From NCBI RefSeq assembly GCF_018420025.1, contig NZ_JAEDAM010000056.1:1-6786 (forward strand): a stretch of 6,786 nt of DNA, read 5' to 3'. The first letter of the stretch is position 1; each line of letters opens with the position of its first letter. This DNA is from Candidatus Vampirococcus lugosii (GTDB taxonomy: Bacteria > Patescibacteriota > Gracilibacteria > Absconditabacterales > Absconditicoccaceae). Positions 1 to 6,786 of the stretch are shown piece after piece. The notes under the pieces were generated by a model. That model saw only the letters and a program-made list of their open reading frames with translations. It was not told where the DNA came from and searched no databases. The position numbers and the translations under genes are program-made.

Positions 1-360
1 ATTAGATTTATTAGAATCATCTAAATTAGAATTAGTTTTATTAGAATCATCTAAATTAGAATTAGTTTTATTAGAATCATCTAAATTAGAATTAGTTTTA
101 TTAGAATCATCTAAATTAGAATCAGTTTTATTAGAATCATCTAAATTATTATTAGTTTTATTAGAATTATCTAAATTAGAATTAGTTTTATTAGAATCAT
201 CTAAATTAGAATCAGTTTTATTAGAATCATCTAAATTAGAATTAGTTTTATTAGAATCATCTAAATTAGAATTAGTTTTATTAGAATCATCTAAATTAGA
301 ATTAGTTTTATTAGAATCATCTAAATCAGAATTAGTTTTATTAGAATCATCTAAATTATT
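1..360. repeat. Tandem direct repeat, 30-bp unit x 12 copies (array may continue beyond the left edge); consensus attagttttattagaatcatctaaattaga
   Basis: Read directly: units start at 1, 31, 61 ... 331. Six copies are identical to the consensus; the others differ by 1-3 nt (units at 1, 121, 151, 211, 301, 331). There are no spacers between units. The period is a multiple of 3 and in frame with the minus-strand CDS. Confidence 0.95.
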
Positions 361-621
361 ATTAGATTCAGTTTTATCTTTTTTCAAAAATCAATTGATT
401 ATAGATTTAGTTTTATTTACTCATTTGTTTCATTCTTTTTTAAGATCATTTGTTATCTTTTCAAGATGTTCTTTTCTTTCTTGTGGCATATTATCATATT
501 TTTTTTCTACATAAGATATTAATGGCTTAAATAATCATTTTACAAATAATGGCATATCTTTTACTGTTTGTTTAAGATCATTTATGATTCTTTCTTTGTG
601 GCTTTTTTCTTCATTATTCAT
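1..621 (-). CDS. Hypothetical repeat protein, start in window and 3' end off the left edge: 87-aa K/E-rich N-terminal domain followed by at least 12 tandem 10-aa repeats (consensus SNLDDSNKTN)
   Basis: ATG at 621-619 with an in-frame TAA two codons upstream. The frame is open to position 1 when TGA is sense (4 in-frame TGA). Translation: MNNEEKSHKERIINDLKQTVKDMPLFVKGLFKPLISYVEKKYDNMPQERKEHLEKITNDLKKEGNKGVNKTKSIINGFLKKDKTESNNNLDDSNKTN... The N/K/D/E/I-rich composition matches the other genes in the window. No signal peptide or TM segment is visible. Caveat: plus-strand frame 2 is also open across the repeat (LDLLESSKLE..., stop at 512-514), but it gives an L/S/F-rich, antisense-looking product. 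Confidence 0.65.
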
Positions 622-820
622 TTTTTATAATTAATATTATTTATATATATAAATATATAATTATATTATTTTATTTTTAAATTTCAAGTTGTTTCAATTA
701 TTTTTTATAAACAAATATTAAATTATTGTTTTTCTTTGTCTATAATTAAATATATTTATTATTTTTTAATAATTTTAAGTTATTTTTTTGTATATTATGA
801 TACTGACAATATTTTTTTAT

Positions 821-4811: not shown

Positions 4812-5906
4812 ATGACTTTTGTACTTGATGATATAATTAATACTACTCAAGATATGATAAAAATTCCTTCAATTTCTGATGATTTAATAAATTTGGAAAA
4901 AAATATAGATTATATTTATAATTTCTTTGTAGATACTAATTTGATTATTGAAAAAAAGTATTATAATAATAAACCAAATATTTTGGTAAAGAATTTTGAA
5001 TGAAAAAAGGCAGATATAGTATTAAACGGTCATATTGATGTAGTTGCTGGATCTGATGATAAACAATTTGAGCCATATATAAAATGAAATAAATTATATT
5101 GAAGATGATCTATAGATATGAAATGATGAATTTCTATAATTATGTATATAATGAAATATTTGGATAGTATATCTTATAAAGACAAAAAAATATCTTTAAT
5201 AATAACAAGTGATGAAGAAATAGGTTGATTTGATTGTGCTTACAATATTGCTAAAGATTGATATATATGAGATATTATTTTGATACCAGACTGATGATCA
5301 AGTACAAGAATTGTAAATACTCAAAAATGACTTAATTTGTTTGAAGTAGTTGCACAAGGAAAATCTTGTCATTCAAGTAGACCTTGGCTTGGTGATAATG
5401 CAATAAATAAAATTTTTAATTTATATAAAGATTTAAAGGAAACTTTTGAAAACAAAACAAAAAATAATCGATATTCTACAGTTAATTTAAATAAAATTCA
5501 ATGATGAAAAAGTATTAATGCTATTCCAAATGAATGTATAGCTAGTTTTGATATAAGATTTACTGAAGATTTTGATGATAGTTATGTAAGAGAGACTGTA
5601 AATAAATTAATTATCAATAATTCTTGTACTGTTATCAAATCAATTTTTTGATCTTGTCTTCATACTGATGAAAATGATAAAAATTTACAAAAATTTAAAT
5701 CAATAGCTTCTGATTTATCTTGATGAAAAGAAATAAATTTTGTTAAAGAACATTGATGATCCGATTGAAGATTTTTTGCACAATATTGATCAAAAATAAT
5801 ATTATATAGACCTGATTGAGATAATTTGCATACATTTGATGAATGGATTGATATTAATTCTTTTGAATTAATTTATAATTCGTATTTAAAATTTATACTT
5901 TCTTAA
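4812..5906 (+). CDS. M20-family metallohydrolase (ArgE/DapE/ACY1/CPG2-type peptidase/deacylase), 364 aa
   Basis: ATG at 4812, TAA at 5904-5906, about 22 in-frame TGA. With TGA=Gly the canonical M20 motifs appear in order. These are LNGHIDVV (metal His), KLYGRGSIDMKGG (metal Asp; 5097-5129), ITSDEEIGG (catalytic and metal Glu), and LIPDGG. They continue with QGKSCHSSRPWLGDNAINK, IQGGKSINAIPNECIASFDIRF and EHGGSDGRFF (C-terminal metal His; 5751-5771). ORF-track entry 4812-5003 is only its first 63 codons. Confidence 0.9.
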
Positions 5907-5946
5907 TTTTTATAAAAAAATAAAAATCAATTAAGATTTTTATTTT
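5901..5946 (+). terminator. Possible weak intrinsic terminator overlapping the peptidase stop codon
   Basis: tcttaatt (5901-5908) pairs with aattaaga (5929-5936) across a 20-nt A-rich loop, followed by tttttatttt (5937-5946). The stem is almost all A-T and the loop is large, so support is weak. Confidence 0.3.
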
Positions 5947-5964
5947 AATTAAAATATTTTAAAT

Positions 5965-5995
5965 AAAAAAATGCAAAATTGCATTTTATTTTTTA
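5965..5995. terminator. Bidirectional rho-independent terminator between the convergent peptidase gene (+) and tRNA operon (-)
   Basis: aaaatgca (5968-5975) pairs with tgcatttt (5980-5987) across a 4-nt loop. An A-tract lies upstream (aaataaa) and a T-tract downstream (atttttt), so a U-run follows the hairpin on either strand. The site lies 12 nt beyond the tRNA-Trp 3' end. Confidence 0.55.
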
Positions 5996-6006
5996 CAAAA
6001 AAAATA

Positions 6007-6079
6007 CAGGGGTGACAGGACTTGAACCCGCGACACACGGCTTTGGAGACCATTGCTCTACCAACTGAGCTACACCCCT
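6007..6079 (-). tRNA. tRNA-Trp (anticodon CCA), 73 nt, 3' CCA not encoded
   Basis: Reverse complement: AGGGGTG TA GCTC AGTTGGTA GAGC A ATGGT CTCCAAA GCCGT GTGTC GCGGG TTCAAGT CCTGT CACCCCT G. It has a 7-bp acceptor stem, a 4-bp D stem, GG in the D loop and a TTCAAGT T-loop. The anticodon loop CU-CCA-AA has U33 and A37. The sequence after discriminator G is TA, not CCA. Confidence 0.9.
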
Positions 6080-6082
6080 ATA

Positions 6083-6159
6083 TGGTGGGTTAGGAGGGAC
6101 TTGAACCCTCGACCTTGGGCTTAAGAGGCCCCTGCTCTAGCCAACTGAGCTACTAACCC
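6083..6159 (-). tRNA. tRNA-Lys (anticodon CUU), 74 nt plus encoded 3' CCA
   Basis: Reverse complement: GGGTTAG TA GCTC AGTTGGCTA GAGC A GGGGC CTCTTAA GCCCA AGGTC GAGGG TTCAAGT CCCTC CTAACCC A CCA. The acceptor, D and T stems are perfect. The anticodon stem has one G-A mismatch at its top (27:43). The anticodon loop is CU-CUU-AA. A 3-nt spacer separates it from the downstream tRNA-Trp. Confidence 0.9.
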
Positions 6160-6167
6160 AAATATAG

Positions 6168-6196
6168 TATATATTATATATACTGATTTATAACAA
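6168..6196 (-). promoter_or_regulatory. Candidate promoter for the tRNA-Lys/tRNA-Trp operon (TTGTTA -17 nt- TATATA on the minus strand)
   Basis: On the minus strand, ttgtta (6196-6191), a 17-nt spacer, then tatata (6173-6168), ending 8 nt before the mature tRNA-Lys 5' end. Alternative registers exist (ttgaat further upstream). The AT-rich context makes this weak. Confidence 0.25.
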
Positions 6197-6211
6197 AAAT
6201 TCAAGTATTTT

Positions 6212-6255
6212 TTAATAAATTTTCCTCTCTATGTAAAGAGAGGAAAATTTATTAA
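6212..6255 (-). terminator. Perfect 19-bp-stem / 6-nt-loop hairpin overlapping the stop codon of the 6252-6410 ORF; probable terminator or insulator between that ORF and the tRNA operon
   Basis: ttaataaattttcctctct (6212-6230), loop atgtaa, then agagaggaaaatttattaa (6237-6255); every position pairs. No clean U-run follows on either strand, so the terminator role is inferred from position only. The structure itself is certain. Confidence 0.45.
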
Positions 6256-6410
6256 CTATTATCTTTTACAAATTTTGAATTAATACTTGATTCTTGAAAA
6301 TATTTTCTTTGATAAAATTCTGATTTTTTTCATATATTAAATTGACTTACTGGTCTATGATATCACATTACTCTAGTTACAATTTGACATTTTGTTCTTT
6401 TCTCTTCCAT
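6252..6410 (-). CDS. 52-aa ORF matching only the C-terminal glycyl-radical segment of an anaerobic (class III) ribonucleotide reductase, NrdD-like; either an IS-truncated gene remnant or a stand-alone mini-protein
   Basis: ATG 6410-6408, TAA 6254-6252. Translation: MEEKRTKCQIVTRVMGYHRPVSQFNIGKKSEFYQRKYFQESSINSKFVKDNS. The stretch TRVMGY-x-RPVS-x-(F/W)N-x-GKK-x-EF-x-x-RK resembles, from memory, the NrdD C-terminus around the radical glycine (glycyl-radical fingerprint R-V-x-G-Y). That Gly (6365-6363) and the Gly of NIGKK are both TGA codons. An in-frame TAA lies 5 codons upstream of the ATG. The next roughly 140 nt upstream have stops in all frames, so no NrdD body or Zn-ribbon (CxxC...CxxC) precedes it. 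Confidence 0.55.
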
Positions 6411-6786
6411 TTCTCTATTATTTTAATAATATATAAAAATATAAGGCTAAAATATAATACATCTTGATTATATAAATACTTATATATTAGAAATATAATA
6501 AAATTTTTATTTAAATCAAGAGAAAAATGTTAACATATTATTAATCTTCTGCACCTAAATTAAAGAAAAAAGTGAATTTTGTTGATTCTGTAGCTGTTTT
6601 CTTTGATTTCTATTTCGGAAAAATTTTCAATTATGTAATATATATTCAACTACTTCTAACCAGGCATACATATAATAATTATTTAGTCTTTCAACTTCAC
6701 TTCTTAAATGTATTTTCTCTAAATTATATTCTTGTTTTAAATATTTATATGTTTCTTCTATTAACCATCTATAACTATATACTTTT
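6411..6786 (-). mobile_element. Partial insertion sequence (IS4/IS5-like); the inner terminus lies somewhere in 6411-6554 and the other end is off-window
   Basis: Inferred from the transposase 3' end plus about 140 nt of non-coding sequence before the next ORF. The terminal inverted repeat cannot be defined because the other IS end is not in the window, so the left coordinate is only a bound. Confidence 0.45.
6555..6786 (-). CDS. DDE transposase, C-terminal 76 aa (IS4/IS5-type, DDE_Tnp_1-like); 5' part off the right edge
   Basis: The minus-strand frame starting at 6785 gives KVYSYRWLIEETYKYLKQEYNLEKIHLRSEVERLNNYYMYAWLEVVEYILHNGKFFRNRNQRKQLQNQQNSLFSLI, ending in TAG at 6557-6555. It contains an exact Y-x2-R-x3-E-x6-K signature (YSYRWLIEETYKYLK). 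This is the conserved block carrying the third catalytic acidic residue of IS4-family transposases. One in-frame TGA (HNGKFF). Confidence 0.75.

Follow-up and report, generated by a model that had tools for sequence, protein, structure and literature searches.

A 52-codon open reading frame (ORF) on the minus strand of contig NZ_JAEDAM010000056.1 of Candidatus Vampirococcus lugosii very probably codes for the smaller of two polypeptides that make up a class III (anaerobic) ribonucleotide reductase (RNR), the one that bears the radical. The window analysed here is the whole contig of 6786 bp, which has a G+C content of 18.8%. The ORF is homologous to the C-terminal end of NrdD and exactly complementary to a large NrdD protein encoded elsewhere in the same genome. 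The same split was found across hundreds of genomes, and both members of the gene pair are intact in V. lugosii. Assembly of the two chains, activation by NrdG and activity of the split enzyme would be expected from the sequence relationship and from how NrdD and other glycyl radical enzymes are known to work.

The glycyl-radical tail and its probable separate partner

The window ORF (MBS8122217.1 / WP_213349588.1) runs from an ATG at 6410-6408 to a TAA stop at 6254-6252. Its translation is MEEKRTKCQIVTRVM, a TGA, YHRPVSQFNI, a second TGA and KKSEFYQRKYFQESSINSKFVKDNS, with the two TGAs at codons 16 and 27. V. lugosii is an episymbiont of the Absconditabacteria (SR1) which reads UGA as glycine (PMC8080830). 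With TGA translated as glycine, the peptide matched the Pfam family NRDD (PF13597) with an E-value of 4e-7 and a score of 29.5 bits, which exceeds the gathering score of 26.2, and covered only positions 530-562 of the 562 in the profile. Five NCBIfam NrdD models were also matched, each at its last ~30 positions only, and the whole-protein scores were 14-25 bits versus cutoffs of 326-585. NRDD was the only family found in a Pfam scan at E≤1, with no match to Gly_radical (PF01228). The RVxGY loop and the P..(F/W)N.GK block that follows it are both present (RVMGYHRPVSQFNIGKK). The barrel with the finger-loop cysteine is absent from the 52 residues and is encoded by a separate protein, P0142. The Zn ribbon is absent as well, as the peptide has a single cysteine (C8) and no CxxC. 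These results agree with an earlier note on this DNA, made from the sequence alone, which took the ORF for the glycyl-radical tail of NrdD without the barrel and the Zn ribbon: all matches are limited to the last ~35 positions of the NrdD profiles, and the comparison with PF13597 that the note had named as a check gave a score above threshold.

The same note had called the radical glycine a reassigned TGA codon, and this holds under genetic code 25. In the M20 peptidase gene beside the ORF, the GRG..DMKGG and HGGSD motifs are spelled with TGA. The share of TGA among the glycine codons of four V. lugosii genes was 22/27, 20/24, 35/39 and 45/55 (80-90%), the last of these being the in-frame TGAs of the large nrdD gene. 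Because TGA supplies most glycine codons in V. lugosii, its use at the radical glycine is the norm and no special feature.

The large NrdD protein of V. lugosii, P0142, has 709 residues and scores 1008 bits against NF006126 (cutoff 548). Its gene lies on a separate contig of 13,960 bp, at a locus (L086) recovered from a Logan assembly of the original reads. P0142 ends in CPKCDEEKGYKNV, followed by TAA TAG; it carries a Zn ribbon, CPIH...CPKC, at its C-terminus and no glycyl loop. The two proteins meet almost to the residue. On NF006126 (684 positions), P0142 extends to position 650 and the window ORF covers 649-683. On TIGR02487 (581 positions) the large protein reaches 549 and the small one covers 549-579, and on NF006127 (631 positions) the corresponding figures are 595 and 595-629. 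Similarly, the large protein aligns with T. maritima NrdD (4COI) up to residue 612, and the small family aligns with residues 614-646, RIVGY included. Jointly, the large and small proteins span the NrdD profiles end to end. In the NrdD of P. copri, a single rigid-body glycyl radical domain, residues 676-739, comprises the Zn site together with the glycine loop and the C-terminal tail (PMC11226230); the split thus cuts through the glycyl radical domain.

Because the partner NrdD has no glycyl loop, the small protein is very unlikely to be a backup like GrcA, and it is predicted to be an obligate subunit and no spare. The split falls between the Zn ribbon and the glycyl loop in the lineage of NF006126 / PRK08270-type NrdD. 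The large protein of this lineage combines the ATP-cone and the Zn ribbon with a ten-stranded barrel, which bears the thiyl-radical cysteine, and the protein of 50-90 residues provides RT.CE..TRVMGYHRPVS.FN.GKKSE only. In the mechanism that we propose, the activase NrdG would take the C-alpha hydrogen from Gly16 of the small protein, and the activated loop would then dock in the barrel of the large protein beside the finger-loop cysteine, completing the active site.

Cys 8 of the small protein (codon 6389-6387), eight residues before the radical glycine in RT.CE..TRVMGY, is nearly invariant in the small-ORF family. The Zn ribbon of the large protein reads C-x2-H ... C-x2-C and not CxxC...CxxC. 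As a speculation, the cysteine of the small protein might complete the metal site of the large protein and anchor the subunit.

The small gene of V. lugosii looks functional by several measures. All 21 invariant columns of the family alignment (A1, 23 members) are kept in the window ORF. Its length (52 residues) and start are the same as those of its orthologue at locus L002, the closest relative, which has no insertion sequence (IS) beside it. The ratio of nonsynonymous to synonymous substitution rates (dN/dS) between these two orthologues is 0.22, with dS = 1.47; as a pairwise value it cannot isolate the terminal branch, so that a recent loss of constraint would not show. The operonic state of the gene in relatives points in the same direction. 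A search of the PDB with the window peptide alone gave no match, and a search with the family profile found T. maritima NrdD only (E=1.4).

Split nrdD in relatives and cultured bacteria, and orphan copies in phages

A search of 5.8 billion proteins with the window ORF returned short proteins only. They formed 26 clusters of 52-90 residues (E=1e-15 to 1e-7) on contigs up to 495 kb, and the core TRVMGYHRPVSQFNIGKKSE was almost invariant across them. An exhaustive profile search of 1.84 billion representatives gave 1051 clusters (50% identity) at E≤1e-10, and the best 150 of these were all 53-146 residues long. The window ORF fits the pattern of a stand-alone small subunit of 50-90 residues with the core R(T/Q).C...TRVMGY.RP....N.GK, and it groups most closely with operonic small ORFs of code-25 genomes rather than with viral copies. 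Pfam and NCBIfam hold no model for the stand-alone small protein. The window ORF is an intact member of a large, widespread and apparently uncharacterised family.

In relatives the small ORF stands between a large nrdD gene (593-734 residues) and nrdG, as at loci L001, L002 and L087-L092. The large gene ends a few to ~30 residues past the second cysteine pair of the Zn ribbon. At L001, for example, the large protein ends in YCPKCDEEILTRKEKELVLN before its stop and is followed by the small ORF AAAGGAGGTaacaATG. Some small ORFs are preceded by their own Shine-Dalgarno sequence (AAAGGAGGT in L001). With the large V. lugosii protein as query and one genome per species, a genome scan yielded 80 loci from Gracilibacteria, Absconditabacteria, Peregrinibacteria, Magasanikbacteria, Uhrbacteria, Nomurabacteria and other lineages. 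The glycyl motif was on a separate ORF in 79 of the 79 loci with room downstream, and nrdG followed on the same strand in 76 of the 79. The large protein was without a glycyl loop in all 79 relatives examined. The earlier note had suggested a search for orthologous mini-ORFs without an adjacent IS, and such ORFs were found in relatives.

Because this sample had been chosen through the large gene, a metagenome survey was made through the small ORF. The large gene ends within ~360 nt upstream of the small ORF in 69 of the 78 metagenome loci with room, and its match there consistently stops at query positions 702-708. In 65 metagenome loci the large gene and nrdG occur together, and about 9 of the 78 small ORFs are unlinked from a large gene.

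The split is also found in cultured bacteria. A tblastn search of plasmids and chromids detected the small ORF in 161 records, among them 132 Ralstonia replicons as well as Bradyrhizobium, Paracoccus, Allochromatium and Cupriavidus. In the RefSeq record of Sulfuricurvum kujiense, a 704-residue 'ribonucleoside triphosphate reductase' is overlapped by 4 nt by a 58-residue 'nrdD', and the activase gene follows. Plasmid pHG1 of C. necator H16 carries a large gene of 676 residues, a 142-nt gap, the small ORF WP_011154154.1 of 66 residues and then nrdG, and C. metallidurans CH34 has the same layout. The genome paper of C. metallidurans lists NrdDG as Rmet_5137 and Rmet_5139 and passes over the gene between them (PMC2864759). 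That paper also states, with reference to Siedow et al. 1999, that H16 cannot grow anaerobically without nrdDG; in that case the split operon is functional in vivo.

Several other features of these loci were observed. The Prokaryotic Genome Annotation Pipeline (PGAP) places the symbol nrdD on the small ORF of 58-66 residues and a generic name on the catalytic protein of 676-704 residues (L093 and L095, NC_014754.1 and NZ_CP039289.1; L094, NC_007974.2). Many Ralstonia and Cupriavidus records list no feature under the small ORF, although the plasmid gene table consulted is incomplete. Of 44 loci of the Candidate Phyla Radiation examined (from L002 and L006-L083), 32 have tandem NrdR boxes (ACACTATATATAGTGT-like, ~32-33 bp apart) in front of the large gene. 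A gene for a 78-residue glutaredoxin-like protein lies between the small ORF and nrdG at L089:6183-6419 and L090:5690-5926, in the vicinity of rhodanese and flavodoxin genes, a hint that NrdD of the NF006126 type may use a thiol-based reductant.

The arrangement of the ORF pairs bears on whether the ribosome makes one protein from both, through frameshifting, read-through or bypassing. Such recoding would fit the short gaps of many operons and the 4-nt overlap of some pairs. However, the gaps range from this overlap to several hundred nt (>300), the pairs occur in all three relative frames, and each small ORF has its own ATG start, in some cases its own Shine-Dalgarno sequence, and a variable N-terminal leader. 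The V. lugosii pair is spread over two contigs. Recoding is thus hardly conceivable, and the frames, gaps and start codons of the ORF pairs likewise ruled out an intein and an intron.

Nine of the metagenome loci centred on the small ORF are orphans, and five of these are in phage lysis modules (L097, L143, L151, L157 and L174). A scan of IMG/VR found 290 viral contigs which encode a relative of the small ORF. In 78 of the best 80 (L176-L255), both nrdD and nrdG are absent within 4 kb, and in at least 41 of the best 80 the orphan lies just downstream of holin, endolysin and spanin genes. The position downstream of the lysis cassette is typical of phage morons or auxiliary genes. Orphan ORFs of the phage type had no match in E. 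coli genomes or in isolated phages. On one IMG/VR contig (L182, 25% G+C), the frame of the small ORF stays open across a TGA that lies just before the conserved core; the host of this virus may be one with a recoded TGA (code 25 or code 4).

The orphans raise the question of a spare part of the GrcA/YfiD type, in which the small protein would replace the oxygen-cleaved glycyl domain of an otherwise complete NrdD. The window ORF does encode a stand-alone glycyl-radical peptide, and the viral copies without a nearby nrdD or nrdG recall Y06I of phage T4. Only two spare parts, both for pyruvate formate-lyase (PFL), have been validated, and spares for other glycyl radical enzymes may exist (2021, PMC8683613). 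However, neither V. lugosii nor any of the 79 relatives examined has a replaceable loop on its partner NrdD, the peptide matches NRDD and not Gly_radical (PF01228), and the nearest relatives of the window ORF are operonic rather than viral. We consider a spare part of this type very unlikely for the window ORF. The second reading of the earlier note, a detachable radical domain analogous to GrcA, was therefore right in part: the domain is separately translated and conserved in relatives, but the analogy with GrcA fails on a partner that has no loop.

A true spare part, or an auxiliary radical subunit, is best sought among the phage copies, which could re-arm the host reductase during infection. 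An extension of the two-subunit reading is an exchangeable radical cartridge, in which NrdG would activate the free 6-kDa peptide, which would then plug into the NrdD body. After cleavage by oxygen only the peptide would have to be remade, and phages appear to exploit this. We put this idea forward tentatively, as somewhat more doubtful than likely.

The dispersed operon of V. lugosii and the surroundings of the ORF

In V. lugosii the operon is dispersed, and the small gene is now alone between a copy of an IS and two tRNA genes. The coordinates of these features are collected in Table 1. As the large gene is at another locus, the small protein must act in trans. At that locus (L086), neither the small ORF nor nrdG nor an IS was found near the large gene, and the IS in the window has no sequence in common with its contig. 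NrdR boxes were absent both from the 103 nt available in front of the large gene and from the sequence upstream of the window ORF, which points to a loss of NrdR control in V. lugosii. Downstream, 103 nt separate the large gene from an unrelated Gly-zipper lipoprotein gene. This gene (L086:2337-2777) encodes a 146-residue protein of the Gly-zipper / 17-kDa-antigen type; TGA is used at 0 of its 15 glycine codons, its G+C content is 38% and its Shine-Dalgarno sequence is strong. The gene looks like a recent acquisition from an organism with the standard code, possibly the gammaproteobacterial host.

Table 1. Features of the window around the small nrdD ORF
Feature	Position	Strand	Basis or remark
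Probable NrdD-small gene, glycyl-radical loop subunit of a split class III RNR	6252..6410	-	52 codons + TAA; translation, profile matches
TGA for Gly16, predicted radical glycine of RVMGY	6363..6365	-	aligns with the glycine of RIVGY in T. maritima NrdD (4COI)
TGA for Gly27, in the conserved FNIGKK block	6330..6332	-	translation, family alignment
AT-rich spacer between transposase stop and ORF, 144 nt	6411..6554	-	stops in all frames
3' end of IS4/IS701-type DDE transposase gene	6555..6785	-	76 codons + TAG; contig ends inside the IS
19-bp perfect hairpin directly after the ORF stop, likely bidirectional terminator	6212..6255		folding, terminator scan
tRNA-Lys(CUU), downstream neighbour of the ORF, in the place held by nrdG in relatives	6083..6159	-	
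tRNA-Trp(CCA)	6006..6080	-	

The transposase fragment matches Pfam DDE_Tnp_1 (E=1e-3) and the NCBIfam IS701/IS4 models (E=4e-5 to 1e-3), and it carries the Y-2-R-3-E-6-K (YREK) signature. Logan contigs from two independent assemblies of the same reads stop at window position 6569, which indicates that the IS is a repeat with its boundary near 6540-6569. An in-frame TAA is found at 6425-6423, upstream of the ORF. The hairpin after the ORF has a folding energy of -23.7 kcal/mol (z=-7.4), and 0 of 200 shuffled sequences fold as well; one terminator-like site was found versus 0.2 expected. These data bear out the layout described beforehand, namely a TAA, a spacer of about 140 nt with stops (144 nt by our count) and the 3' end of an IS transposase upstream of the ORF, and a strong hairpin (19 bp) downstream. 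A scan of 5900-6786 with Rfam found the two tRNAs and nothing else. At the other end of the window, positions 1-624 (minus strand) hold a partial ORF which runs off the contig end and contains ~13 tandem copies of the 10-residue unit NLDDSNKTNS. The two Logan assemblies are likewise interrupted within these copies, at positions 303 and 334.

The first reading of the earlier note was that insertion of the IS severed the 3' end of nrdD and left a remnant which kept an ATG by chance. The transposase gene does end 144 nt upstream of the ORF, in the same frame. However, the ORF is separate, with an identical start, in relatives that have no IS, and the L002 orthologue also has the same length. The large gene is complete, with its own stops at the other locus and no sequence in common with the IS. 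The spacer has no similarity to nrdD tails: a tblastn search of the 144 nt with 82 large-protein tails for a remnant of the nrdD 3' end gave only chance-level matches, on the wrong strand and inside the transposase. A remnant made by the IS is therefore highly improbable and that reading is abandoned; the IS is a neighbour of the ORF and not the cause of its separateness.

A more serious alternative is a relic, that is, a small member of a split NrdD which has been unused in V. lugosii since the operon broke up and has not decayed so far. Several observations favour it or weigh against a working small subunit. The window ORF is unlinked from the large gene and from any nrdG, and instead of standing between them it is flanked by the adjoining IS and by tRNA-Lys. 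Upstream of it there is no NrdR box, and the one match to the core of the box anywhere in the window does not exceed chance. A weak sigma-70-like site in the spacer (TTGATT at 6519-6514, TATATT at 6497-6492) has to be read beside the promoter-like matches as a whole, which are at chance level (3 found versus 7.2 expected). The AlphaFold model of the small protein alone, with a mean predicted local distance difference test (pLDDT) score of 63, is mostly coil and uninformative. Moreover, V. lugosii has been described as scavenging host nucleotides (PMC8080830), and in an organism dependent on host nucleotides the reductase could be on its way out. Against a relic, the ORF is intact, its length and start equal those of the orthologue and every invariant residue is kept. 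The pairwise dN/dS of 0.22, in which the terminal branch is not isolated, also argues against it, as do the intact gene of the 709-residue partner and the strong terminator after the ORF. We consider a relic unlikely, though less so than any other alternative to a functional small subunit. On this sequence evidence the reported nucleotide scavenger V. lugosii probably retains the synthesis of its own deoxyribonucleotides.

Meaning and comparison with known systems

Glycyl radical enzymes are taught as single chains, in which the C-terminal domain swings out of the barrel to reach the activase. No description of a split class III RNR was found in the open-access full-text literature, and we give slightly better than even chances that the split form is truly undescribed, despite its occurrence in model bacteria such as C. 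necator H16 and Ralstonia solanacearum. If the radical cartridge proposed above is true, it would have no precedent among glycyl radical enzymes, in that the radical resides on an obligately separate subunit, nor among ribonucleotide reductases as a spare-part system. The split also points to an inexpensive way of repair after oxygen damage and to a new kind of phage auxiliary gene. As a natural split, it allows activation and docking to be studied apart, in the cultivable C. necator, Ralstonia and Sulfuricurvum. Surveys that demand a glycyl loop in NrdD would misjudge genomes with split nrdD, and many records leave the small ORF unannotated.

The canonical system, a single-chain NrdD with its activase NrdG, is known from phage T4, E. 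coli, T. maritima (4COI/4U3E) and Prevotella copri (8P23). The barrel, the finger-loop cysteine, the Zn ribbon, the RVxGY loop and the radical S-adenosylmethionine activase are common to the canonical and the split forms. In the split form, however, the Zn site stays on the large chain, and the buried glycine loop with the C-terminal tail is a separate protein of 6-8 kDa.

Similar to the PFL cofactors GrcA/YfiD of E. coli and Y06I of phage T4, the small protein consists of little more than the loop, is presumably activated by the activase of its parent and would dock in a barrel without a functional loop. GrcA is homologous to the C-terminus of PFL (Gly_radical), whereas the small protein described here is homologous to NrdD. 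GrcA rescues a parent which has a loop of its own; the NrdD parent here never has one, so that the small protein would be constitutive and not a means of repair.

The phage copies have a counterpart in PHROG family phrog_4132, which bears no annotation. The window ORF matches it with E=3.8e-6 and the prophage-borne orphans with E=1e-8, at positions 116-163 of 179. The phage copies have no adjacent nrdD or nrdG, whereas the window ORF groups with the cellular operonic copies.

The class II RNR of P. aeruginosa, NrdJa/NrdJb, is likewise split, with its catalytic chain distributed over two adjacent genes whose products must reassemble (PMC4860495, PMC9669993). It differs from the split class III form in that it belongs to the adenosylcobalamin-dependent class and is divided at another point: NrdJb has Zn-finger and IscU-like domains for re-reduction and no radical site, whereas in the split NrdD it is the small protein that would carry the radical.

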